Counted from the stretch's first letter, positions 32,317-63,938 are shown. The stretch is DNA of 64,000 bases from Escherichia coli (GCA_025544715.1 GCA_025544715.1_4109.3), one strand, 5' to 3'. Notes: generated from the letters alone by a model not told the origin. A program made the numbers and translations.

Positions 32317-32721
32317 TTATTCAGGATCTTTGTTTTTATCAACTGTGTTGTTTTTATTCAAATCAATTTGTAAAGCCATTGCAGCTTCAGCATTTTCTTC
32401 ATGTGTGCCATTGAATTTATACCCATTCTTAATGAGATTCACTGTGTAGTACTTATTATAAAGAAATGCCCAAACGATCATCGCAATAGTACCTACAATC
32501 CAAAAAGACACTGCGTTTAGGATGAAGTAAATTACAAATGCACCAATGAACGTAATAAAGTCACCACGGAACAATGCAGGGAAAGGTCCAAAAAATAATG
32601 TAGTCCAAGAAAAACCAAAGAAACCATCTTTGCGTTGTCCTACATTTTCATTTTTTAAAGAAATTGTTTTAGCCATTTTTAATCTCCTACTTTTTATTTG
32701 GGTTTGGTATGCAGTACACAA
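32317..32721 (-). CDS. membrane protein (134 aa)
   Basis: Two or three hydrophobic helices. Confidence 0.45.
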   Translation of the reverse strand: MCTAYQTQIKSRRLKMAKTISLKNENVGQRKDGFFGFSWTTLFFGPFPALFRGDFITFIGAFVIYFILNAVSFWIVGTIAMIVWAFLYNKYYTVNLIKNGYKFNGTHEENAEAAMALQIDLNKNNTVDKNKDPE

Positions 32722-32908
32722 ATACTAAATGATTAAAATGTTCTGTATTCGCATACTTTGCTAAGTCGGTTATGATGAAGTTTGTATCTTTAAATCTGCC
32801 ATCATTGAATGTTGTGATTTGAAAACGTAGTTCAGGTGCAAAAATATAATAATAGAATATATCATTTACACACCCAACAGTATGTTTAGCATATCTTTCA
32901 ATTTTCAT
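32687..32908 (-). CDS. hypothetical small protein (73 aa)
   Basis: C-terminal EHFNHLVFVYC motif shared with ORF 2..220. Confidence 0.4.
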   Translation of the reverse strand: MKIERYAKHTVGCVNDIFYYYIFAPELRFQITTFNDGRFKDTNFIITDLAKYANTEHFNHLVFVYCIPNPNKK

Positions 32909-51085: not shown

Positions 51086-52288
51086 TTATAGATAATACTT
51101 TCCAATATAAAGTGGATTACTAATTGATAGTTGAACGTGACACGGCTTATCTTGGTAGTAACGAGAACTTGATGTTTTGCGTTCATTTGGTGGGAAGAAT
51201 GGTGAACGATAACCGTTCCATGTACTAAATGATGTGTGCTCATTAATATCAACATCCATTGACATAATTCCATTATCATCAATTTGAACTGGGTATGCAC
51301 TAAAGCGTTCAAATTTATCATTATAATGAATATTATAATCCCCGCTACGTCCATAATAACTACGTGTTGTATTATTACTTACACCAAAAAATACGCGATA
51401 AGATTGTTCATTATCTTTAGTCATAAATGGTACGTTCTCGTTGAAACGTCCATTATTCATAAGATCATCAACATTTATTTCTTCATATTTAATTTTTAGG
51501 TCTTTTGCTTTAAATGATTTATTGTGTACCAGTACTGGAATGTTAGATTCACCTAATGGGTTATGTCTGTTTGTTCTATAGCTTTGCCAAAATTCATTAG
51601 CAAGTTTAATTTCTTCATCTGCCGTAGTCTTCTTATTCAAGAGTGCACGAGGTTCCAGATTGTAATTATCCAAACGTTGATTCAATGCATAAGTTCCACG
51701 AGTACTGTTATAAAGTAAATGATAAACAGAACTTTTGTCGGGGTATGCAAATTCTTTAGTTTTCTTTATACAAATTGCATGTACTTTACCGCAGTAATAG
51801 TAATCTTCTTTGAGATACGTGAAGCCATCACCAACTTTAAGACCTGCTACAGTTTCTTTTTGTTGTTCTTTTTTATTTTCTTTTTCAACTAACTTAGCAA
51901 ATGTTTTTGTTTTACCATTAATTAATTCTAAGTTATTGTTGAAAAACATTGGGTCTACAAAAACACCTTTGATTATATCGTTATTGATAATTAAATCATT
52001 CATGTTTTTGGCACTAATCATAAATTCAAATCCTTCTGGGTGACGGATTGTGAAATATGTTTCTCGTGCATGAATTGTTAATTTATCAACTACACAAAAT
52101 CCAGTAGTTGGAACGTTGTCAATATATAACGATGGAAGATTGTTCTTCTTTGCCCAGTACTCTGCTCTCTCTTTCTTTGTTTCAAACGCTTTTGTATGTG
52201 ATTTTGTTGCATCGATAATAAAACCATCAACTTGGTTGTGGTTTACATAGGAACGTGCAACAAATAACTTCTCTGGAAAATCCATCAA
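51086..52288 (-). CDS. hypothetical protein (400 aa)
   Basis: Long ORF; no motif recognised. Confidence 0.5.
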   Translation of the reverse strand: MMDFPEKLFVARSYVNHNQVDGFIIDATKSHTKAFETKKERAEYWAKKNNLPSLYIDNVPTTGFCVVDKLTIHARETYFTIRHPEGFEFMISAKNMNDLIINNDIIKGVFVDPMFFNNNLELINGKTKTFAKLVEKENKKEQQKETVAGLKVGDGFTYLKEDYYYCGKVHAICIKKTKEFAYPDKSSVYHLLYNSTRGTYALNQRLDNYNLEPRALLNKKTTADEEIKLANEFWQSYRTNRHNPLGESNIPVLVHNKSFKAKDLKIKYEEINVDDLMNNGRFNENVPFMTKDNEQSYRVFFGVSNNTTRSYYGRSGDYNIHYNDKFERFSAYPVQIDDNGIMSMDVDINEHTSFSTWNGYRSPFFPPNERKTSSSRYYQDKPCHVQLSISNPLYIGKYYL

Positions 52289-52704
52289 ATAGTCCTCATT
52301 GTACTGATTGCTTTTAGTGTGTCAAACAATGCACCATATTTTACTTGCATTAGTTGATCACCCGCAGGAAGATTCATACGCATAACAGCCATGTCTTCAA
52401 TCATTTCAGACGTACACAGTACTGCTACACAGGTAATAGCATCATTTAATCCAGCTTCATTGAATTTGGCAAAAGGAACTTTTCCCTGTTTGCTAAGGTT
52501 GTTATAATAAGAATTTAATTTATCATGTCCACCAGCATTTAGTACTACAATAGTTTCGTGTTCATAGTACCATTCATCAATAATAGTACTGAAAGCAGTA
52601 CCTTCATATTCTTTAATTAGTTTAACACCAGCATGGAATGCTTGAATACCAGCTTGGACACCTTGACAGTACATATTAGTTAAGCAATACAATTTCATTT
52701 CCAT
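52285..52704 (-). CDS. hypothetical protein (139 aa)
   Basis: ORF. Confidence 0.45.
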   Translation of the reverse strand: MEMKLYCLTNMYCQGVQAGIQAFHAGVKLIKEYEGTAFSTIIDEWYYEHETIVVLNAGGHDKLNSYYNNLSKQGKVPFAKFNEAGLNDAITCVAVLCTSEMIEDMAVMRMNLPAGDQLMQVKYGALFDTLKAISTMRTI

Positions 52705-52922
52705 ACCTCTTGTTTTTCTACATAGCCTTTCCCATCACAGTGTGGACAAGCAAAAAAGCTGCGGTAATCTTCTGACGGTACTTGTTGTGTTCCATTACAT
52801 GTAGGACACACTTTACGTGCACCCGAAATAATACGTTCATGGTGTTCAGCTTGTTTAGCTGAATCAAAAATACGACCATCTTCAGTTTGGTATTTTTCTA
52901 CCATAACTTGAATTACTTTCAT
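52695..52922 (-). CDS. zinc-ribbon protein (75 aa)
   Basis: CPTC ... CPHC pairs. Confidence 0.45.
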   Translation of the reverse strand: MKVIQVMVEKYQTEDGRIFDSAKQAEHHERIISGARKVCPTCNGTQQVPSEDYRSFFACPHCDGKGYVEKQEVWK

Positions 52923-52932
52923 TTCTATTTCC

Positions 52933-53202
52933 TTATAAAAATGTTAAATCTTCAGTACTTAATTGTGATAATTTACCATCATATTCAATTTCAACATATA
53001 CATTTTGGTCATAAACAGCAACTACACGTTTAATAACTCCAATCTTCACTACATTCTTTTTGTAGTAGAACTCAACTGAACAACCAATAAGTTTATTTGA
53101 TAGAATCTCACGTATTTGATTAGCATGATCTTTTAGGATAGAATTAATAGATTTTTTCATAATATATCTATCATTCAAATATTTTTTAACTACATCATGC
53201 AT
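52933..53202 (-). CDS. small protein, LIGxxV family member
   Basis: KLIGCSVEFYY motif shared with multiple small ORFs in 52.9-60.8 kb. Confidence 0.45.
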   Translation of the reverse strand: MHDVVKKYLNDRYIMKKSINSILKDHANQIREILSNKLIGCSVEFYYKKNVVKIGVIKRVVAVYDQNVYVEIEYDGKLSQLSTEDLTFL

Positions 53203-53207
53203 AATTA

Positions 53208-53951
53208 TTACCTTTTGAAACGATTGAATGAGTACTCATCTTTTTCTTTACGTAAGTATCTCATCCCACCACTTTGTGGAGTAGCAAGAGTTAAGTCACC
53301 CGTCAAGAACTGACTATCAATCCAAATGCGATTACCATAAATGAGTGGTTCAGTAACGGCTGTATGTCCACTAAAGACACAATGCACTCCATCTAACTTA
53401 GGTGCATAATAGGTATTATTCATTCTACAATAATCGAATGTTTTCCTATCCCACAAGCACTTATCAATTATATCAGCACTAAGTGATTTTGTCCCATTAA
53501 CAAATCGTTCCCATGTTGTATATTCCAACGGAACTCCAGCATGAACTAACCCAATCTTCAATCCTCGGTGATTGATTTGGATAATCATGGGTAAATCTTT
53601 TAAGTACTGACGAAAGAATTGAATGCCTGTTCCTCCAACTTCATCAAGGAATTTATCACCACCATTACTTATCCAACAATGATACCAATCTCGAAGTGTT
53701 TCCGAATCAACGCACATCATCTCATGATTACCCGCAATCATGTAACGATTTTCTCCGAACAAAAATTCAAAAAGGAGCTTTGAATTTTGTTCTCCACGGT
53801 CGATAATATCACCTACACTGAAAACATAATCATTGTGTGTAATACCAAATTCTTTCACTGTAGCATCCCATAGTTTACCATTACCATGCAAATCACCTAC
53901 AATGTATAAATCTTTATCATCAGGTACGGTTACTTCTAAGAAATGTTTCAT
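53208..53951 (-). CDS. Ser/Thr protein phosphatase (lambda-PPase-like metallophosphatase)
   Basis: GDLHGN, GDIIDRG, GNHEMM motifs; start set to ATG (MKHFLEV) with GGAG RBS (track 53966). Confidence 0.75.
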   Translation of the reverse strand: MKHFLEVTVPDDKDLYIVGDLHGNGKLWDATVKEFGITHNDYVFSVGDIIDRGEQNSKLLFEFLFGENRYMIAGNHEMMCVDSETLRDWYHCWISNGGDKFLDEVGGTGIQFFRQYLKDLPMIIQINHRGLKIGLVHAGVPLEYTTWERFVNGTKSLSADIIDKCLWDRKTFDYCRMNNTYYAPKLDGVHCVFSGHTAVTEPLIYGNRIWIDSQFLTGDLTLATPQSGGMRYLRKEKDEYSFNRFKR

Positions 53952-53953
53952 TA

Positions 53954-54205
53954 TTACTCCAACCATATAATATTAGTGTGTTTAGTAACTTGTGTTCCAG
54001 CAAAAGAACCATCTTTAAGATAAGTATTAATTTTAAAACGCCATTCACCACCACTAATATACATATCAGTAATAATATACTTTCCATACCCTCTAGAGTT
54101 TATTAATCGTACTTCTTGACCAATATATTTTGGCTTCAGATCATTTATAAAATCATCAGCCAAAGACATAAGATATCGCAAATGTGATAAGTCGTGGTTG
54201 AACAT
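53954..54205 (-). CDS. small protein, LIGxxV family member
   Basis: KYIGQEVRLIN motif. Confidence 0.45.
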   Translation of the reverse strand: MFNHDLSHLRYLMSLADDFINDLKPKYIGQEVRLINSRGYGKYIITDMYISGGEWRFKINTYLKDGSFAGTQVTKHTNIIWLE

Positions 54206-54420
54206 TATTTCTTTCTCTTATATTTGTTAATAATATCTTGGGTAAGTGAAATAAAAATATATACTAACGTTACAGGCCAAATAATAGCCATCAGTGCTGC
54301 TGTTTGGAGATTCATGATAATCATGAATTCATCTTTAAAACAACCCCAATTAAGTACTAGAAAGTTGGTTATAAATGTAACAAATGCTACAAATCCATAT
54401 ATTGCAAAAAATGTTATCAT
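54205..54420 (-). CDS. small membrane protein (71 aa)
   Basis: Two hydrophobic helices, KYKRKK tail. Confidence 0.4.
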   Translation of the reverse strand: MITFFAIYGFVAFVTFITNFLVLNWGCFKDEFMIIMNLQTAALMAIIWPVTLVYIFISLTQDIINKYKRKK

Positions 54421-54422
54421 AA

Positions 54423-54752
54423 TTATTCCTCATCATCCACTAAAACAAGATAATCCAAACTCAACTCTGTATCTATGTAACAATCACAATTCAAGTACTC
54501 AATTTCAGCACCTATAGTTCTCCCATTCTTAAATATCTCAATGATTTTCATTCTAGTATTGGGATTAATGTGTTCAATGTCGTATTCGTATTCAGGGTCA
54601 ATATACTGACTTGTAATACGTTTGATGTATTGTTCCGAATATCGTACAGTTTTACCTATAAGATCATTACTCAACGTCTGATAAAAATCATCTTGAATTT
54701 TGAATAATGACCTATAAAAAATATTATGTTGAATTAGTGGTTTCATAGACAT
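54423..54752 (-). CDS. small protein, LIGxxV family member
   Basis: DLIGKTVRYSE motif. Confidence 0.45.
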   Translation of the reverse strand: MSMKPLIQHNIFYRSLFKIQDDFYQTLSNDLIGKTVRYSEQYIKRITSQYIDPEYEYDIEHINPNTRMKIIEIFKNGRTIGAEIEYLNCDCYIDTELSLDYLVLVDDEE

Positions 54753-55381
54753 TAATCACAACTTCCAGAAGATGAACTTGAATCAGAACTAGAGCTATCA
54801 TAGGAACAAGAATCAGAGGAAGAACTGCTGTGACGGCTATAATCACTGTAATCATCATTGTTGTAGATTGGTGATGTTACGATTGCTGCTGCGGTCGCTG
54901 CCGTTGCAATTTGTGCAGTATGGTCATGAACACCTAGTTGTGGTTCATCCTTAGATTTACCTTTGTTCTTACCTTTAGTGTAACGAGCTTTCTTTGCAGT
55001 TTTAGTATTTTTCTGTGCTTTAGGAGCTTTTGGTTTCACATCTTCAACGACTGGAACTACATTCACTACAACTTTAGGGTCAGTTTCTTCAAGTGTATTA
55101 TACACTTTAACTTGCATTTGCACTTCAACTTCTTTAACTTCTTCTTTAACTTCTGGAATAACTGTTTCTGGTGCTGGGGTGATTTTATCAAGTTCTTCAG
55201 TAATAAAGAAGCTTGTATTTTTCTCACCTAGCATAACAAGAAGACCAATAGCAATCACTGGACTTAGTACTGTACCAAGTACTACATAACCTAGAACACT
55301 TCTGTTATAGTTATATGCAAGCATACCAGAAATAATAATACCGATTACATATGCACTGCTAAGAATAATTGGGGTTAACAT
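54752..55381 (-). CDS. membrane protein with Lys-rich linker and Ser/Asp-rich C-terminal tail
   Basis: Two N-terminal TM helices, KAPKAQKNTKTAKKARYTKGKNKGK, C-terminal SSSSSDSCSYDSSSSDSSSSSGSCD. Confidence 0.45.
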   Translation of the reverse strand: MLTPIILSSAYVIGIIISGMLAYNYNRSVLGYVVLGTVLSPVIAIGLLVMLGEKNTSFFITEELDKITPAPETVIPEVKEEVKEVEVQMQVKVYNTLEETDPKVVVNVVPVVEDVKPKAPKAQKNTKTAKKARYTKGKNKGKSKDEPQLGVHDHTAQIATAATAAAIVTSPIYNNDDYSDYSRHSSSSSDSCSYDSSSSDSSSSSGSCD

Positions 55382-55685
55382 ATTCTACTCCTTTGTATAT
55401 AAATTTACTAACTTCTTCGATGTATAAAGACGTCCCTAAACGTTCATTTAGAACTAACCAAGCACCAAAACCACATCGAATCTCGGATATATGAAACTCT
55501 TCTACACTGTAATTTGAATACGCCTTAAATGGACATATTTCATCAGATATACTTACCACATAGTTATTACTAATTGAATCTAACACTTGGGTATTGTATA
55601 AATTATTAGTACTGAAAATGTGCATTAACGAACTAGAAAGCATCTCGAATGTCTTTTCTAAAATTGTTAAAAACGAACCATTCAC
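55359..55685 (-). CDS. hypothetical protein (108 aa)
   Basis: GTG start with GGAG RBS 8 nt upstream. Confidence 0.4.
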   Translation of the reverse strand: MNGSFLTILEKTFEMLSSSLMHIFSTNNLYNTQVLDSISNNYVVSISDEICPFKAYSNYSVEEFHISEIRCGFGAWLVLNERLGTSLYIEEVSKFIYKGVEYVNPNYS

Positions 55686-55716
55686 TTCAACTTCTCCACA
55701 TTGGTGATGTAATCAA

Positions 55717-55725
55717 ATTATATCA
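55717..55725 (-). promoter_or_regulatory. extended -10 promoter element (TGaTATAAT)
   Basis: Minus-strand TGATATAAT within inverted repeat ggtgat...atcacc, about 30 nt upstream of 55359..55685. Confidence 0.35.
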
Positions 55726-55742
55726 CCGAATTCTGATACGTC

Positions 55743-56048
55743 TCATGATATTCGCATTTCATCTATATATAATGAACATGATTCAGAATTATCGTCTAAA
55801 CTTAAACCTAAATCAACCATTAAACCACAATGAGTTCCCCAGAATTTCTTTATGTATAGTTTTTTCCTACTATTACCTAAATCATAAACATATTCATTTT
55901 TAAACATACTTTTTAATTCTTCACATATACATTTTACTATCTTCATTAATTGATTATGATATTCGTATGGTATCCCATCAAGTTCGTTAATTATTAATGC
56001 AAAACCATTATCATAGTACTTTAGCTTATTGAATGTTTGTATATCCAT
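55743..56048 (-). CDS. hypothetical protein (101 aa)
   Basis: ORF. Confidence 0.4.
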   Translation of the reverse strand: MDIQTFNKLKYYDNGFALIINELDGIPYEYHNQLMKIVKCICEELKSMFKNEYVYDLGNSRKKLYIKKFWGTHCGLMVDLGLSLDDNSESCSLYIDEMRIS

Positions 56049-56345
56049 TTAATATATAATCTCACTAGCTTCTATTGTGTAGACACCATCATCAGTCATT
56101 AATCTTACTGCAACTTTAATATTACTAGACAATCGTGTAACTATCAATCCAATAATTATACCATCCTTTAAAGTACCATTATGGTATCTTACTTGTACTT
56201 TAGTTTTGTTATCAATTAGGTATCTTCGAATATAATGAATTTCAGTTCTAAACAGTTCTAAGTAAACTTCACTATATTCCTTATCTGAACCGTCTGAACA
56301 CCAGTACAATAAATTTACTTGTTCAAATAATTTTTTTATATTCAT
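56049..56345 (-). CDS. small protein, possible LIGxxV family member
   Basis: Weak match (YLIDNKTKVQVRY). Confidence 0.4.
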   Translation of the reverse strand: MNIKKLFEQVNLLYWCSDGSDKEYSEVYLELFRTEIHYIRRYLIDNKTKVQVRYHNGTLKDGIIIGLIVTRLSSNIKVAVRLMTDDGVYTIEASEIIY

Positions 56346-56644
56346 AAAAATCTCACAGATTTAATATTACTAGTTACATGATTAACCCAAGTGTTATCGA
56401 ACTTGTAAACAATTGTATTAAGTGATTTATGAAAATTAACCTCAGACACCACAGCCTTGGAACCATTGATTACACAGACGGTTGACGGTAAATTATTTGC
56501 TAATATCTCTTTTTCATCTAAAGATAGTGAACTAATACAATCATAATAGAGAGGTTCAAGAACTTGTTCAGTACTGAGAAATTCAAAAGAAAGATCATCT
56601 ATTAGTTTTATGTAATCGAATAAATTATGATAATATTCATTCAT
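56342..56644 (-). CDS. hypothetical protein (100 aa)
   Basis: Start re-assigned to ATG (MNEYYHN) with AAGGA RBS (track 56701). Confidence 0.4.
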   Translation of the reverse strand: MNEYYHNLFDYIKLIDDLSFEFLSTEQVLEPLYYDCISSLSLDEKEILANNLPSTVCVINGSKAVVSEVNFHKSLNTIVYKFDNTWVNHVTSNIKSVRFL

Positions 56645-56891
56645 TGCAGATCCTTTTAAATTTAGCATTATTAGAATATGTATATGAATGACCAAAATCA
56701 TTTACGCCATGTACATTTAGTACACCGTCACTGAAATAAATTCGTTCAATAGTGAGTTCACGTTTATAATCCCAATCATCATACCAGCACAGAACACGAA
56801 TACCTTTGTACTTTGTAGTTAAATCATTTTCTAATATAGTCAAGTAATCAATATGACTTTTGAATATCTCTAAGTCCTGCTCAAACATCAT
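56637..56891 (-). CDS. small protein, LIGxxV family member
   Basis: KYKGIRVLCWY motif. Confidence 0.45.
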   Translation of the reverse strand: MMFEQDLEIFKSHIDYLTILENDLTTKYKGIRVLCWYDDWDYKRELTIERIYFSDGVLNVHGVNDFGHSYTYSNNAKFKRICNE

Positions 56892-57148
56892 TGTTCCTCG
56901 TATAATTCTATATCATCAACTCCAACTTGGCGAATTGCAGTACTTCTGTTGAATGTATTTTTTTCAAACAAACATACTGTTAAACGTATTTCACACTTCA
57001 ATGCACTGTAATAAATCATATCAATAACACCATATGTTTCATACATTTCTACGTATACATTTCGACCTAAATACTTTTCTTCTAAATCAGTAATTAGACT
57101 ATTGATAAGATTACCTATCTGTGTTATATCTGTGTGAAATTTATCCAT
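56888..57148 (-). CDS. small protein, LIGxxV family member
   Basis: KYLGRNVYVEM motif. Confidence 0.45.
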   Translation of the reverse strand: MDKFHTDITQIGNLINSLITDLEEKYLGRNVYVEMYETYGVIDMIYYSALKCEIRLTVCLFEKNTFNRSTAIRQVGVDDIELYEEQ

Positions 57149-57324
57149 TATAATAAACCTCTCACATAAAACATTGATGAAAATAGATAATCATTAGTAC
57201 TTGTGTTTAGTTGTTTAGAAAAGTTATATTTTTTATCTTTATTTTCGTATAAAGACAATCTATAGAACATTTCTATATTTTCTAAGTATTCTTTTTGTAA
57301 CAACATCTGTGTTTTTACATTCAT
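57148..57324 (-). CDS. hypothetical small protein (58 aa)
   Basis: Start re-assigned to ATG with AAGGT RBS just after the pseT terminator (track 57393). Confidence 0.35.
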   Translation of the reverse strand: MNVKTQMLLQKEYLENIEMFYRLSLYENKDKKYNFSKQLNTSTNDYLFSSMFYVRGLL

Positions 57325-57340
57325 TACAATATACCTTAAA

Positions 57341-57368
57341 AGAAAAAGGGACCAACATATGATCCCTT
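57341..57368 (-). terminator. hairpin terminator after pseT
   Basis: aaaaggga/tccctttt stem followed by T-rich run on minus strand. Confidence 0.4.
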
Positions 57369-57373
57369 TTGTA

Positions 57374-58306
57374 TTAGAAATTTCCTTCTGCAACTTGAAA
57401 AACTTTCAAGCCAAGTAGTTTACGCCACATGAATACAACTTGATCGCGGTCATCATAAACCTTTTTAACATCGTAATGATCAACCACATTTTTCATGTAC
57501 AGGTCGAATTTTACAACATCATCGGGACGTTTATCATCGATGTCTCGCATAAACAATGCATCGTAAGGAACACCCCAATTCTTAAGCCACTGTTCGGTAT
57601 CAGCACGACACCCTTCAGTACGCCCACTCATGACGATAATCTTGCGTTTATGAAAAACTGCTTCAGCGATAATAGACAAAATAACTTCTTCATCTGGTGT
57701 ATCCTGAAGAACAGTACTTTCATCGTAAGGATTACGACCCCATTTATGAGCAAGAGTACCGTCAATATCAACGATAACAGCAGCTTCTCGTGAATTACCA
57801 TAGTAACCAATGTGCATGGCCTTACTATAATAGTACGTATCTGCCATAGTGTCAATGATATTATCTTGTACAGAACGCTCACGCATGAGGTTACGTTTCT
57901 TACAAAGTTTTACGAACTCTTTAATCTTAAAGAAAACATGAACATCTGCACCACGATCTTCATTCGGTACAAAATCTTCGTAGAAGTTCTTTTCTTTGTA
58001 GTCGTATTCATTATCTTTAGCCCAACGTTTCCATTCATCACGGAAATGTTGTTTAAGGTTCGTATCGGACACAATGATGTTCCAACCATTCTCTGCTGCT
58101 GAATTTGCTGCACTGAACTGCATTTTAGTTACGTACTGCTCATTAGCGTCGTTGAATTTGTATGCATCATGTGACCCAGCCATAGATTCACGAATATCAT
58201 CACGGTTGATGTTGATAGTCTTTGATTTGGCATTTTTAATTTCTTGAACTGCCCATGTAGTTTTACCACAACCAGGCAACCCAACTGTTAGTGTAATAGT
58301 TGGCAT
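57374..58306 (-). CDS. pseT: polynucleotide 5'-kinase/3'-phosphatase
   Basis: Walker A GLPGCGKTT, phosphatase DxDGT motif IVDIDGTLA; overall similarity to T4 Pnk. Confidence 0.85.
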   Translation of the reverse strand: MPTITLTVGLPGCGKTTWAVQEIKNAKSKTININRDDIRESMAGSHDAYKFNDANEQYVTKMQFSAANSAAENGWNIIVSDTNLKQHFRDEWKRWAKDNEYDYKEKNFYEDFVPNEDRGADVHVFFKIKEFVKLCKKRNLMRERSVQDNIIDTMADTYYYSKAMHIGYYGNSREAAVIVDIDGTLAHKWGRNPYDESTVLQDTPDEEVILSIIAEAVFHKRKIIVMSGRTEGCRADTEQWLKNWGVPYDALFMRDIDDKRPDDVVKFDLYMKNVVDHYDVKKVYDDRDQVVFMWRKLLGLKVFQVAEGNF

Positions 58307-58318
58307 TATTACTCCTTG

Positions 58319-58633
58319 TTACTCAATGAATTCAACATCTTCGAGTTTGTGCCATCCTCTTGAAAGGTTTCTTGTTCCGTTATTGTATTCAGTGTATACA
58401 AAGCATTCACCATTTACTAAATTACCAATAGCAGTACGCGATACTTTAACATCAAGAATTATAGTACTGAACCATTCTCTGATTGTATGATCCCAGCATT
58501 TAACTTTACATCCAATCAATGTTTTCTTAAAATCGAAAACGTAATCTTCGACCATTGATTCGACAGATTCTATTAGTTCCTTTTCAATGTACTTTAACTT
58601 TTCGATCCTCTCAAATGCAAGTTCTTTATTCAT
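58319..58633 (-). CDS. small protein, LIGxxV family member
   Basis: KTLIGCKVKCWD motif. Confidence 0.45.
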   Translation of the reverse strand: MNKELAFERIEKLKYIEKELIESVESMVEDYVFDFKKTLIGCKVKCWDHTIREWFSTIILDVKVSRTAIGNLVNGECFVYTEYNNGTRNLSRGWHKLEDVEFIE

Positions 58634-58639
58634 ATGTCC

Positions 58640-58894
58640 TCAATTATCTAGAACATCCACTATCAAACAAGCTTCAATAACGAAACAATCATCTAATTCA
58701 AAGAGTAATTGATAGTCATCAGAAAACTTCACTTTAGTAATGTAAGCACTTTCAATTCCACCACTATGATAAGAACTATATAAAATACATTTACCTGTAT
58801 ATTCCTTACGGATACGACTAAATTCTTCATATAAATGAGTAATAAACGTATCCGCAGTTTTGTTGTAGTATTTTAGGTCACTTACTGTGCTCAT
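58640..58894 (-). CDS. small protein, LIGxxV family member
   Basis: KEYTGKCILYSS motif. Confidence 0.4.
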   Translation of the reverse strand: MSTVSDLKYYNKTADTFITHLYEEFSRIRKEYTGKCILYSSYHSGGIESAYITKVKFSDDYQLLFELDDCFVIEACLIVDVLDN

Positions 58895-59108
58895 TAACTT
58901 TTCCTACTCCAAATCGTTTGGAGATTTTCACAAGTACAGATTCATCACAACGAATACTAGCTGTATCATTGGATGAACTGTACTTTAATGGGGTCCACTG
59001 TAATTGAGATTCTTCTAGGAACTTGATACATCTGAAGTAATCTTTCAGAGAAAGAAATTTAACTACTGACATATCCTGAACAATACTATGCTGAACTTCA
59101 ACTTTCAT
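58878..59108 (-). CDS. hypothetical protein (76 aa)
   Basis: ORF. Confidence 0.4.
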   Translation of the reverse strand: MKVEVQHSIVQDMSVVKFLSLKDYFRCIKFLEESQLQWTPLKYSSSNDTASIRCDESVLVKISKRFGVGKVNEHSK

Positions 59109-59117
59109 ATGAACTCC

Positions 59118-59375
59118 TTATAGTGGATCAAATTTATTTTCACGTTTCGATGTATAGCGAGTTACATCATGTATTCTCGGCTTAACACCTTTTGGTTTCC
59201 TTTTCTTCTTGTATTCAGTACTACTACATCCGAAGGTATTCTCGATTCGTTTCTTACTTATCTTCACACCTTTCATTGAGCGTTTGTGCTGTAATTCATC
59301 GATTTCTTCTTGTATTTTCCTGAACTCAGTCGGAGAAAGGGAACCGTCATTTTTATACTTAGGTTTAGCCATCAC
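59118..59375 (-). CDS. hypothetical basic protein (85 aa)
   Basis: Lys/Arg-rich. Confidence 0.4.
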   Translation of the reverse strand: MMAKPKYKNDGSLSPTEFRKIQEEIDELQHKRSMKGVKISKKRIENTFGCSSTEYKKKRKPKGVKPRIHDVTRYTSKRENKFDPL

Positions 59376-59402
59376 TTCTCCTTGTGCTTAGGCTAGATAG
59401 TA

Positions 59403-60545
59403 CTAAAAATCCTTTAGTACAATTTTCATGTATTTTATAAGAGTCTCTTTGTAATCAACTTTCTTATTGTTATACATTGCAAAGGCCAAGCCCTGACGAT
59501 TCAGTTCATTAGTTAAACACTCCTGAACCTTCATTGCGAATTCCTTTCGCTCCAAGTGCTTGTGTTCCTTGACGAAGCTTTCTACTTCATCTTGTAATGC
59601 ATTATAGCACGAAAATACCAATTGTTCCATTCTTAATATCTTTTGCATAGCATATTCATCAGTACTGAACAATTGTTTTAAATCATCACTTGAACCATTT
59701 AATACGGCTTCATATAAATGAGAATCAATAATAATACTATCTTTTGTAAGATGTAATGAACTGTACCAGTCAGTCTTTATTTTACACATTGTTCCATTAT
59801 TTAGGATGCACACAAAACCCTCAATATCAAGCATTTTATGAACTTCCTCCACGCTTTCACGGAAGGTATTTCGTACCGGAAAAGTGTGATGAATATCTTT
59901 TCCTGTCATATTAGTACTGTACTGTGCAAGACATGGAAACTTATCACGTAGTGCTTTACCACATAGCAACTCACCACTCACACGATGTCGAACGTTCAGT
60001 ACAAACAGTTGTTCTACCTGATATGGTAATACAATTCGGTACTCTGGGCTTGTATACTCCATATTAACTGTGTAACCTAAACGTTCCGCTTCGTCGATGT
60101 ACTGATACAAATTCTGGTTCTCGTTAATAAGTCGAGTACTGTTAATCGCATGGTCAGAATACAATGCAGTATGTGATTTACAACGAATCTCACCATCATT
60201 ATCACGATAAGTACTGATGATCGAACCATCCAACTTAGGCATAACTACCGCAATGTCATCGCATGTGGTGTTAGCAGGGAACATTGTAGCAGGATTCTCG
60301 TAAGCATTAAAGAACTTTTTCATTGTACGTGCTGCACAACGTATCATGTCACCTTCTTCATCAATTTCCCACATAGAGCCACGGGTTTCCAACGCATTTG
60401 GTTGCATGAAATCAGTGTATGATGCTAGACGATAACTGAATACACGATACGTACCACCAGCAGGACTTTTATGATCCACATAAAAGAACGCATCGTTTGT
60501 ATTACATAAGTGCATTAAATCTTCATATATTTGCAAAAGGGTCAT
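59403..60545 (-). CDS. rnlA: RNA ligase 1
   Basis: Adenylation motif KLDGS and N-terminal similarity to T4 RnlA (GGTYRVFSY, ETRG, KFFN). Confidence 0.85.
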   Translation of the reverse strand: MTLLQIYEDLMHLCNTNDAFFYVDHKSPAGGTYRVFSYRLASYTDFMQPNALETRGSMWEIDEEGDMIRCAARTMKKFFNAYENPATMFPANTTCDDIAVVMPKLDGSIISTYRDNDGEIRCKSHTALYSDHAINSTRLINENQNLYQYIDEAERLGYTVNMEYTSPEYRIVLPYQVEQLFVLNVRHRVSGELLCGKALRDKFPCLAQYSTNMTGKDIHHTFPVRNTFRESVEEVHKMLDIEGFVCILNNGTMCKIKTDWYSSLHLTKDSIIIDSHLYEAVLNGSSDDLKQLFSTDEYAMQKILRMEQLVFSCYNALQDEVESFVKEHKHLERKEFAMKVQECLTNELNRQGLAFAMYNNKKVDYKETLIKYMKIVLKDF

Positions 60546-60805
60546 TTTATTACCTCTATGTCTATATCAGTTCCATAATATGATATTAATCCATCATCTG
60601 ATTCACACTGAATAGACAACTCAGATTCATAATATGTTACTTTATTCACTGTTAGTACTTGTTCTTCAATTTTTCCAGAAAAATAATTCATCTCACGTAC
60701 ACGAACTTTAGTTCCTTTAGGGAGTTCTTCAGAGATTTTTCGAACAAGTTCATAAGCAGCCTGTTCAAGTGTGTACAGTAATTGTAATCTATCTTGGATA
60801 TTCAT
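60542..60805 (-). CDS. small protein, LIGxxV family member
   Basis: LPKGTKVRVRE motif; start re-assigned to ATG (MNIQDRL) with RBS (track 60850). Confidence 0.4.
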   Translation of the reverse strand: MNIQDRLQLLYTLEQAAYELVRKISEELPKGTKVRVREMNYFSGKIEEQVLTVNKVTYYESELSIQCESDDGLISYYGTDIDIEVIK

Positions 60806-60806
60806 A

Positions 60807-61496
60807 TTATTTCCACCAACTGGTATCACGTCCATTAGACAAAGATTCATTGTACTGTCGTCTGAAATTTGTTTCAGGGTTATTATTCATTGTACTAATG
60901 AAATTAAATTTAGTAACTTCTTGGATATATCTAATAACACTATCTTTAAATTTAATAGTACTGAAATCTAAATCCAAATGTTCATAAGATACTGGATGAC
61001 AAAACTCATGTGTACGCAACGATGGCATGGTATCCTTAATGTATTGCACAGTGTTAATCATTGCATTGTATTCCGGCATAGCACGCATCATCATTAGCTG
61101 AAAGTGTTCTTCCTCTGACATTGACTCATCCAAATCAATAACGACTTCATCATTTTTAGAGTCATAAACTTTAATGGTACTCTTGGTTGGATCAAGCATA
61201 GCCCACTCTGGATACAGGCATGTTTTCCAAAAAGGATTATTGCACTGAAACATACTAATGAGATTTTGATCTTTATCAAAAATAGCAAATCCAAGATCCG
61301 AACTTGGTTGTACTTCACATACACAAATATCGTAAGACGAGTCTTCAGTACTGAGTGAACCAACTACATTTGATATATGTGAATATGGAGTTTCTCTTGA
61401 CTCCAACTGAAATGTACTTTCAATTCGATTGATTTGTGGATGTAATGTAATTACACCCCTTAGTACATATAAAATTCTATCTAAATCTTTAATCAA
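60807..61496 (-). CDS. hypothetical protein (229 aa)
   Basis: ORF. Confidence 0.45.
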   Translation of the reverse strand: MIKDLDRILYVLRGVITLHPQINRIESTFQLESRETPYSHISNVVGSLSTEDSSYDICVCEVQPSSDLGFAIFDKDQNLISMFQCNNPFWKTCLYPEWAMLDPTKSTIKVYDSKNDEVVIDLDESMSEEEHFQLMMMRAMPEYNAMINTVQYIKDTMPSLRTHEFCHPVSYEHLDLDFSTIKFKDSVIRYIQEVTKFNFISTMNNNPETNFRRQYNESLSNGRDTSWWK

Positions 61497-62078: not shown

Positions 62079-62381
62079 TTATCCTCTTAATTTAATAGTA
62101 CTGGCTGGATATTCTACCAAAGTATTATCTGGTAATCCTATACAGTAATAAGGGAAATACCCCATCTTTATATTAATACCAATTAAAATTCCTGTTTTAT
62201 ATGAAGTATTAATTCCATAGTAATCGTCTATATCAACAGCAAGTCCATATAATGATATGTTACAATCCTTGATATATCGGTCAAACATTTTATACATTGC
62301 AGAATATAAAGTTCCATTGGATTGTCTCACCAAATCTGCCAACATTTTGATAGTACTGTTAATTAAATCTATACTGAACAT
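62079..62381 (-). CDS. hypothetical protein (100 aa)
   Basis: ORF. Confidence 0.45.
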   Translation of the reverse strand: MFSIDLINSTIKMLADLVRQSNGTLYSAMYKMFDRYIKDCNISLYGLAVDIDDYYGINTSYKTGILIGINIKMGYFPYYCIGLPDNTLVEYPASTIKLRG

Positions 62382-62425: not shown

Positions 62426-62707
62426 TTAAATTATTTCATAAAGACAATATACACCATCAACGCCAGCATCAGGAAAATCAACATAGAAATTCACACTAAC
62501 AGTGTCGTAATCTATATCAGTGATTCGTCCGGTTTTACCTACACTTTTTACAAATATATCAGTACCAAGATACACGAACTCAAATTCGTCCGCATACTCT
62601 TTTATGATATCTGCGAACCAACAACCACACCTAGGTTCTGTGTTAATAATTTCAAGATATAATGTAATATATTGTTCGTATGTCCATGTGTGTAGATAAA
62701 AATCCAT
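62426..62707 (-). CDS. hypothetical protein (93 aa)
   Basis: ORF; chosen over antisense ORF 62384..62662. Confidence 0.45.
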   Translation of the reverse strand: MDFYLHTWTYEQYITLYLEIINTEPRCGCWFADIIKEYADEFEFVYLGTDIFVKSVGKTGRITDIDYDTVSVNFYVDFPDAGVDGVYCLYEII

Positions 62708-62717
62708 AGCAGTTTCC

Positions 62718-63452
62718 TTAGAAATATATCATACCCATCAATTCAGAATCGTCGGGGCGAGTATAACCTTGCTTCTTAACTTTAAAATAGAATGATTCAT
62801 GCTCTTCTAAATTATAACGTTTTTTCAAGCAACGAGTATATGTCTGGCAGTTCGGTGAAACCCATTCATAGATATGAACACCATCTTCATTATAACCATT
62901 AACACTACAACGATTACCTTCATGTTTCATGTAATTTTTACTTTTTTCAGTAAATTCACGAGAATATGCAGTACTTGGTGCTTTGTATTCAAAAGGAACT
63001 TCAGTCATACGAAAATAAAAGTATTCTTCGTCTTCATCATAACCCAAGAGCACAGTGTTAGTTTCACGTACATTGTAATGATTCTTACTTTTTAATTCAT
63101 TTTCATATATATCGTTAAGAACTTCAGCAAATACAATCTCAGGTGCAGCATCTGGATCTGACACACCACTAATTCTTCTTTCAATGATAAAATCTGTGAA
63201 TTTACGGTCTTCGACTATATCTTCGTTCATATAAAGACTAACAAACTTATCCTTATATGTCTTGACACTATATTGCTTACTTTGCACTTCACTATAAACG
63301 TCAGCTAACAAGTTTTCTTGTCCACATTGAACACCACTTACAGAGTAAGCACATGCATGTTCAGCCATTACTGATGTTAACATTTGAAAATTAGCAATAT
63401 TTAGTTGGTTTGCCATTTCGGTAGCAAATTTAATGTTATCTATCATTTTCAC
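62718..63452 (-). CDS. hypothetical protein (244 aa)
   Basis: ORF. Confidence 0.45.
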   Translation of the reverse strand: MKMIDNIKFATEMANQLNIANFQMLTSVMAEHACAYSVSGVQCGQENLLADVYSEVQSKQYSVKTYKDKFVSLYMNEDIVEDRKFTDFIIERRISGVSDPDAAPEIVFAEVLNDIYENELKSKNHYNVRETNTVLLGYDEDEEYFYFRMTEVPFEYKAPSTAYSREFTEKSKNYMKHEGNRCSVNGYNEDGVHIYEWVSPNCQTYTRCLKKRYNLEEHESFYFKVKKQGYTRPDDSELMGMIYF

Positions 63453-63473: not shown

Positions 63474-63938
63474 TTAAACTTTTATTTTTTTCTCTAGTAG
63501 ACATAAACATATATAGTCAATTACAATACCAATGTCCTCAACATCAAATGTTTCAGTATACCCATCACCAAAAATCCTTTTTGGTAATTTACTGCTATTT
63601 TTTAATAAACTTATAATGTTATATTCTATATTTTTCACAACTTCGGTATTACCAGTAAAATAATATAATTCATCAACTATAAAATTAGTTTTCGATCTAA
63701 TACTTATTATTCTAGTTTGATCAAACCTTGTTGATATACCAACTTTATATTTTATTAATATATTATCTTCATAAATTCCAATAATGTATAATTTACATTC
63801 ATTCGGAACTTCTCGTACACAATTACAATTTAGAACTCCACACTTAACTCTACTATACGGTACATATTTGTTGAAGTTACATTCAGTACAGAAAAAACGA
63901 GCCGGTTGTTGTGTACCCTTGTATGATGTTTTATCCAT
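63474..63938 (-). CDS. zinc-ribbon + T5orf172/GIY-YIG-like domain protein
   Basis: N-terminal CTEC...C..C.C then LYIIGIYEDNILIKYKVGISTRFDQTRI, resembling the GIY...KIGxT...R pattern. Confidence 0.4.
   Translation of the reverse strand: MDKTSYKGTQQPARFFCTECNFNKYVPYSRVKCGVLNCNCVREVPNECKLYIIGIYEDNILIKYKVGISTRFDQTRIISIRSKTNFIVDELYYFTGNTEVVKNIEYNIISLLKNSSKLPKRIFGDGYTETFDVEDIGIVIDYICLCLLEKKIKV

Follow-up and report, generated by a model that had tools for sequence, protein, structure and literature searches.

A 64,000-nucleotide stretch filed under Escherichia coli (GCA_025544715.1_4109.3; hereafter the window) represents a jumbo coliphage, a myovirus of the 121Q type in the genus Asteriusvirus, and carries a series of small minus-strand genes that sequence comparison assigns to one old, very divergent paralogous family. 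Each product is predicted to be a single small domain in which one or two N-terminal α-helices pack on an SH3-like β-barrel of the Tudor/KOW/Sm fold class. Judged by sequence and structural models together, the window holds eight definite members, one probable member (D) and an additional copy at 62426-62707 (J); we letter them A to J in coordinate order (Table 1). The family, its unity and its fold appear to be undescribed. An original prediction had proposed the eight definite open reading frames (ORFs), which start at 52933, 53954, 54423, 56637, 56888, 58319, 58640 and 60542, as relatives, and profiles built from their orthologues confirm that they form one family.

The relationship is faint when members are compared directly. 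Pairwise identities range from 14 to 30%, and BLASTP and phmmer comparisons among the 272 ORFs of the window gave marginal values that do not decide the matter: the best phmmer cross-matches joined B to F (E 0.004), B to C (0.009) and B to H (0.055), and A, D and I had no convincing pairwise match. All five top BLAST matches of B were other candidate ORFs. The comparison was widened to syntenic regions from Serratia phage BF and from A4 and Turkey5, both divergent members of the genus. The family orthologues in A4 and Turkey5 are 31-57% identical to the window copies and therefore yield useful profiles. Cross-group matches of these three-sequence profiles reached 1e-5 from A to C (2.2e-5 against the C orthologue), from B to G and from C to H (1e-5 against the H orthologue). 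The C profile also found B at 8e-5, and the F profile found B at 7.8e-5 and J at 3.7e-4; links at 1e-4 to 1e-3 include B-C, B-E, B-F, G-C and F to J.

Iterated hidden Markov model (HMM) searches were run at an inclusion threshold of 1e-3 on pools in which each ORF was also present in reversed and in shuffled form. The member count at convergence was 18, 47 or 40, according to the pool, and in no round did a decoy fall below 1e-3. Member A was recruited in all three. Scored against the family profile, the eight members took the top 8 places among the 83 window ORFs of 60-160 amino acids, and their alignments ran in register over 50-77 columns with the glycine at the same place. Multiple alignment and HMM construction had been named in the original prediction as a way to check it; the resulting profiles link the family significantly while decoys stay out.

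In our strictest test, the profile was rebuilt without the candidate's whole ortholog group before hmmsearch and hhalign were applied (Table 1). The best decoys in these runs lay at 0.004-0.19. A, B, C, F, G and H all beat the best reversed or shuffled decoy, and E did so through only one of its three orthologues. Member I was barely ahead of its best decoy and borderline on this test alone. With nine orthologues, hhalign gave it 71% and E 3.6e-5 over 72 aligned columns, in register. Its orthologue in Klebsiella phage RaK2 (genus Alcyoneusvirus), ORF463, occupies the same place just upstream of the RNA ligase gene rnlA, matches I at 3e-5 to 7e-5, and scores 3.7e-7 against a family HMM built without I. 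Once RaK2 was in the pool, I was recruited with no decoy below threshold.

Support for J is moderate because an alternative iteration that included RaK2 did not recruit it; another iterated search did (9e-14 once in the model). The ORF at 56049, D, had been listed as a possible member, and the two kinds of evidence on it diverge. Its sequence fails the strictest test, whereas its predicted structure shows the expected helix and Tudor/SH3-like barrel. RaK2 ORF478 matches the family HMM at 1.5e-3, and its best match is D, at 1.8e-3. From sequence and model combined, we consider D a probable member.

Other ORFs were tried as extra members. Those at 56342-56644 (K), 55743-56048 (L) and 62079-62381 (M) gave background scores in the leave-group-out test, and those at 55359-55685 and 32687-32908 were rejected at the sequence level.

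Table 1. Family members and interleaved enzyme genes in the window, with results of the leave-group-out (LGO) test.
Feature	Coordinates	Strand	Length (aa)	Motif	121Q gene	LGO hmmsearch E	LGO hhalign	Remarks
A	52933..53202	-	89	KLIGCSV	gp456	2.8e-4 (best decoy 4e-3)	60%	pI 9.0
B	53954..54205	-	83	KYIGQEV	gp454	1.2e-8	95%	family hub
C	54423..54752	-	109	DLIGKTV	gp452	1.1e-4 to 1.5e-3	66%	acidic insertion between first strands
D	56049..56345	-	98	YLIDNKTKV (no motif Gly)	gp448	0.014	1.9%	probable, very divergent member
E	56637..56891	-	84	KYKGIRV	gp446	9.6e-7 (Turkey5 orthologue), 0.014 (window copy)	93%	
F	56888..57148	-	86	KYLGRNV	gp445	1.6e-4 to 1e-3	90%	
G	58319..58633	-	104	TLIGCKV	gp442	2.6e-5 to 2e-4	81%	directly upstream of pseT
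H	58640..58894	-	84	EYTGKCI	gp441	2.8e-3 to 7.5e-3 (best decoy 0.19)	83%	
I	60542..60805	-	87	ELPKGTKV	gp437	4.6e-3 (best decoy 9.2e-3)	24%	start MNIQ; directly upstream of and overlapping rnlA
J	62426..62707	-	93	VYLGTDI	gp433	6e-3 (A4 orthologue) to 0.08	44%	additional member, beyond the range first proposed
NinI-like Ser/Thr phosphatase	53208..53951	-			gp455			neighbour between A and B, non-member
pseT (polynucleotide kinase/phosphatase)	57374..58306	-			gp443 (99.4% identity)			neighbour, non-member
rnlA (RNA ligase 1)	59403..60545	-			gp438 (annotation; 100% identity in one comparison)			neighbour, non-member

Motif and predicted fold

The family was first noticed through a short 'LIGxxV' motif, which might have been a product of base composition. 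The counts argue otherwise. In its strict form, [KD][YL][IL]G[KCQ]xV, the motif occurs three times in minus-strand ORFs, where shuffles lead one to expect 0.02; relaxing it to [YLF][IVLKT]Gxx[VI] raises the count to 22, where shuffles give 11 ± 3.3. Eight of those 22 relaxed occurrences fall at residue 26-46 of cluster ORFs of 83-109 amino acids. Across an alignment of 26 sequences, only the motif glycine, Gly29, is conserved at 90% or more, and the remaining signal is a hydrophobic pattern. The motif is therefore the junction between the helix and strand 1 rather than an active site. Its glycine and the alternating hydrophobic residues have a structural role; conserved catalytic residues are lacking.

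An AlphaFold2 model of B, computed from 19 family sequences, has a mean predicted local distance difference test (pLDDT) score of 71. It places a helix at residues 6-27, followed by strands at 31-36, 39-51, 54-62 and 68-74. Together with the profiles, this model bears out the arrangement originally described, in which an N-terminal helix leads through the glycine-centred motif into a β-rich remainder. The model of D, for which only its own orthologues were used, reached a pLDDT of 78.6, with two helices and a four-strand barrel, and its structural matches are the Tudor/SH3 entries that the B model also finds; D thus keeps the family architecture though its sequence has drifted out of reach. 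In both models the helix or helices accompany a small barrel of four to five strands that can be superposed on solved SH3, Tudor, KOW or Sm domains, and the Tudor and SH3 matches score at least as well as the Sm matches. Structure prediction, the other computational check proposed at the outset, is thus in agreement for both proteins. The top matches in BFVD were weak, none below E 0.014, and include uncharacterised proteins of RaK2, 121Q and PBECO4.

The models place the family in one fold class with the Tudor, chromo-barrel, KOW, bL19 and Sm/Hfq small β-barrels, but hallmarks of the Tudor or chromo-barrel, KOW and Sm domains were not found. Over the barrel, the 26-sequence alignment has no column of conserved aromatic residues that could build the cage with which Tudor or chromo-barrel domains read methyl-lysine or methyl-arginine. 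None of the 26 members matched KOW in Pfam at E<=1, and the sole trace of uL24 among PDB sequences was at E 0.76; nor did any match LSM or Hfq in Pfam, which would indicate Sm1/Sm2. Pfam returned no match for single proteins and none that recurred over the 26 members, and no PDB sequence fell below E 0.017 against the family profile. In contrast to the known SH3-like proteins, these phage proteins are mostly acidic, stand-alone and multi-copy.

Among the closest known parallels is MotB of T4, a non-essential early protein that binds DNA, perturbs H-NS and is predicted to carry a KOW/SH3-like domain at its N terminus (PMC7827196). Like the present family, it is a small accessory protein from the 'non-essential' region of a T4-related myovirus and has an SH3-like barrel; a protein labelled MotB is among the weak BFVD matches (E 0.026, TMq 0.45). 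However, MotB joins its KOW domain to a C-terminal OB-fold, is single-copy, binds DNA tightly and lacks the helix-first architecture, whereas the family is single-domain, 83-109 amino acids long and mostly acidic. We detected no sequence relation between the two.

Range and divergence

The ORFs between 52933 and 60805 stand as first proposed, but that range is too narrow: J lies outside it, and further copies continue beyond the window end in 121Q. A scan of about 113 kb of the 121Q type found about 20 copies. Just past the window end, at 196254-198399 of 121Q, lies a tandem block of seven (gp422-426, 428 and 429). Plain BLAST at E<1e-4 suffices to join it with its A4 and Turkey5 counterparts into a subgroup of 15 members, the part of the family that expanded most recently. 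Outlying copies are gp347, gp376 and possibly gp342. In RaK2, where PseT has 64% identity, 6-11 members surround rnlA and pseT, among them positional equivalents of I (ORF463) and of G and H upstream of pseT (ORF467-469). A family HMM search of the syntenic regions of GAP32 and Serratia phage BF found no member above decoys.

Broader searches returned little else. A word-indexed search of 5.8 billion proteins gave only Asteriusvirus-type orthologues. An exhaustive HMM search of 1.84 billion representatives gave 15 matches, all Asteriusvirus-like except P0015, an 830-amino-acid repeat protein with ten weak repeated matches that we treated as a false positive. By homology searching, the family is specific to 121Q-like (Asteriusvirus) and RaK2-like (Alcyoneusvirus) jumbo phages, and it would have arisen by tandem duplication before the two genera split. 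PHROGs holds a separate singleton for each window member (phrog_38615, 37322, 29135, 36496, 33398, 29519, 31355 and 28139; 1e-57 to 1e-74), all labelled function-unknown, with no links recorded between them. We found neither a mention of the family nor expression data in the literature on 121Q, PBECO4 and Asteriusvirus, Sharanji, CBB, or in jumbo-phage surveys.

Multi-copy small-domain families in giant phages are already known, as is the frequency of SH3-like barrels in small phage proteins. Bacillus phage G, for instance, is described in one jumbo-phage survey as carrying about 35 zinc-ribbon copies, proposed to be regulators or binders (PMC7824862). The resemblance is that a single giant phage genome holds numerous divergent versions of a small binding domain; the fold and the phage lineage differ, and none of the survey passages returned by a term search mentions the helix-barrel family. 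What is gained here is that about 3% of the genes of a 350-kb coliphage (some 20 of about 610 in 121Q) fall into one unrecognised family. Databases list each copy as an unrelated ORFan; recognising the family turns some 20 'hypothetical proteins' into one tractable question. The profile and fold can be used to annotate Asteriusvirus and RaK2-like phages, several of which are under therapy development.

Compared with their counterparts in UE-S1 and ph0011, members have ratios of nonsynonymous to synonymous substitution rates (dN/dS) of 0.02-0.24 at dS 0.1-0.7, and are therefore real genes under purifying selection. That selection is somewhat relaxed; the flanking enzymes give 0.04-0.11 in the same comparisons. 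Member A reaches 0.74 against UE-S1, a value that rests on four substitutions, and gene-wide dN/dS lends no support to positive selection. At greater distance the family outpaces its neighbours by far: flanking enzymes retain 74-92% identity to A4 and Turkey5, family orthologues 32-57%.

Individual copies can also be exchanged or lost between phages that are otherwise 93-99% identical. In PBECO4 and phAPEC6, an A4-type allele with 34% identity replaces G, and no copy of H was detected in the corresponding regions; ph0011 has a 42% identical allele of C. The members behave as cassettes, maintained copy by copy and occasionally replaced or lost.

Possible function

We tentatively favor the view that these proteins are non-enzymatic binding modules for host or phage macromolecules, which would modulate host processes or neutralise defences. 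The proteins would be expressed in the infected cell, where the variable surface of each paralogue would engage a different macromolecule of host or phage; protein is a likelier partner than nucleic acid because most products are acidic and conserve no basic or aromatic positions. Eight of the ten have isoelectric points (pI) of 4.0-5.3 and net charges of -4 to -12. That many surface-divergent copies have been maintained for so long suggests different targets. Their orthologues in phAPEC6, gp361c-gp381c, are absent from the 62 virion proteins found there by mass spectrometry (MS; list from PMC7247149). The host-takeover or anti-defence role first suggested for the family is plausible: it accords with a small binding fold that lacks enzyme signatures, with proteins that are mostly acidic and were not found in the virion proteome, and with alleles that are swapped or lost between near-identical phages, and it would be, by analogy, the most economical account of intracellular, non-enzymatic, variable accessory proteins encoded beside tRNA-repair counter-defence genes. 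Pfam, PDB and literature searches, which included no dedicated anti-defence library, matched no known anti-defence family.

Several observations weigh against this interpretation. A classical arms race leaves no signature at the resolution of gene-wide dN/dS, which is well below 1. Nor is the fast divergence peculiar to the family, because other small hypothetical genes of the same block diverge equally fast and swap similarly. A and B are mildly basic (pI 8-9), virion MS can miss small proteins, and the AlphaFold models of B and D are of moderate confidence only. RNA and DNA binders such as Hfq/Sm, KOW and bL19 are numerous in the fold class, and enzymes of RNA repair are encoded alongside. 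In the literature we found nothing on partners, expression timing or phenotype of these proteins.

The fold and the neighbours lead to the main rival, which we consider rather unlikely: that the proteins are Sm/Hfq-like or KOW-like nucleic-acid binders, acting as RNA chaperones or specificity factors for PseT, RnlA and the nearby PTH2-like hydrolase, or as regulators of translation or transcription. An N-terminal helix before a bent five-strand barrel is the Sm architecture, and the long strands 2 and 3 (13-14 and 9-10 residues) add to the resemblance. In Asteriusvirus and RaK2 alike, rnlA and pseT each have one member directly upstream, and MotB, the DNA-binding early protein of T4 predicted to contain a KOW/SH3-like domain (PMC7827196), offers a precedent. 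Yet the acidity of eight of the ten members speaks against RNA binding; conserved basic or aromatic positions, Sm1/Sm2 or KOW signatures and Pfam LSM or KOW matches at E<=1 are all missing, and Tudor and SH3 structures match no worse than Sm. The interleaving with repair genes may merely reflect accessory genes inserted between conserved anchors. Binding modules might instead serve the virion without entering it, as chaperones or adaptors for fibre, 'hair' or head components. These virions are unusually complex, with hair-like fibres (PMC7247149), RnlA is also, historically and in its annotation, a tail-fibre attachment catalyst, and many specialised copies of a small binding domain could suit many structural clients; purifying selection and the long retention of positional orthologues would fit as well. 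We nonetheless regard such a role as improbable, given the setting of the cluster, amid nucleotide and RNA-repair genes and a long way from the structural modules of the window, the loss or swapping of copies between near-identical phages that presumably have identical virions, and the lack of detected members in GAP32 and BF, which share the virion type.

Two further explanations were weighed. Presence and absence between close relatives, allele replacement and the narrow phyletic range (15 matches among 1.84 billion representatives) might mark them as dispensable, selfish or nearly neutral ORFs of a hyperplastic region. The chance of this seems small, since dN/dS of 0.02-0.24 over dS 0.1-0.7 indicates sustained purifying selection, and positional orthologues have been kept across two genera in which PseT itself is only 64% identical. 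The possibility that there is no family at all, and that AT-rich composition with a generic succession of helix and strands, or convergence on a common small fold, has created its appearance, is largely refuted and very improbable. It could draw on the low pairwise identities and marginal E-values, the PHROGs singleton for every member, the extreme commonness of SH3-like barrels in small phage proteins, and the dependence of J and some tandem-block members on the iteration path. It has to contend with decoys of the same composition that never fall below 1e-3 while members reach 1e-5 to 1e-8 with their own orthologues excluded, with in-register alignments over 50-77 columns that superpose the glycine, and with a physical clustering, partly in tandem, that includes the 15-member subgroup linked by plain BLAST.

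The binding-module reading can be extended into a bolder form that we hold unlikely as a whole. Here the proteins would be an unrecognised phage effector superfamily, about 20 Sm/Tudor-like binders that predate the split between Asteriusvirus and Alcyoneusvirus, each directed at one defence or host machine, with allele exchange tuning host range. Should the proteins prove to be host-directed effectors, new inhibitors that act on bacterial processes or on defence systems could be drawn from them. For now, the family is a sound and useful annotation result and a reasonable experimental target that would not surprise a specialist. It does provide partner screens with a defined group of small binders, probably without enzymatic activity.

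Locus and neighbouring genes

Positions 52900-60900 of the window align in reverse with 201442-209442 of Escherichia phage 121Q at 98.7% identity; the phage records that cover at least 80% of this stretch number 32. Every gene of this region is encoded on the minus strand, and those of the cluster are tightly packed or overlap. The nine ORFs originally listed are all present at their coordinates and correspond to 121Q proteins annotated as hypothetical, within gp437-gp456. Their interleaving with pseT, rnlA and the Ser/Thr phosphatase gene was described correctly.

The designation of the locus as an early region was not borne out, as promoter-like sites are no commoner here than in shuffles. 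Only two convincing minus-strand hairpins resembling intrinsic terminators were found, at 62419-62400 after J and at 57370-57344 after pseT. Both coincide with terminator positions annotated in UE-S1 and probably delimit transcription units within the block.

Next to the cluster, upstream in coordinates, are genes for a DnaJ-type zinc finger, a PTH2-type peptidyl-tRNA hydrolase and a DNA ligase. The first (52695-52922, minus strand) encodes a 75-amino-acid CxxCxGxG zinc-finger protein annotated as a DnaJ-like chaperone, which scores 31.7 bits against Pfam Anti-TRAP, for which the cut-off is 32. The PTH2-type hydrolase domain (52285-52704, minus strand) scores 25.2 bits at a cut-off of 23. This hydrolase, the DNA ligase, PseT and RnlA make up an RNA/tRNA-repair neighbourhood. 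Three hypothetical proteins of 76, 84 and 244 amino acids, encoded on the minus strand at 58878-59372 and 62718-63452, are, in contrast to the helix-barrel family, well conserved as far as Serratia phage BF (61-66% identity); they are probably part of a conserved core around rnlA and pseT.

At the far end, homology of the window to 121Q, PBECO4, UE-S1, ph0011 and phAPEC6 stops exactly at 63474/63475. The cysteine-rich ORF at 63474-63938 (minus strand; 154 amino acids) has no Pfam match, and homologues with 73% identity occur in only three other Asteriusvirus genomes, one of which labels it 'endonuclease'. From its sequence and distribution, it looks like a sporadic, possibly mobile, endonuclease-like insertion that has displaced the gp430/gp431 region of 121Q.

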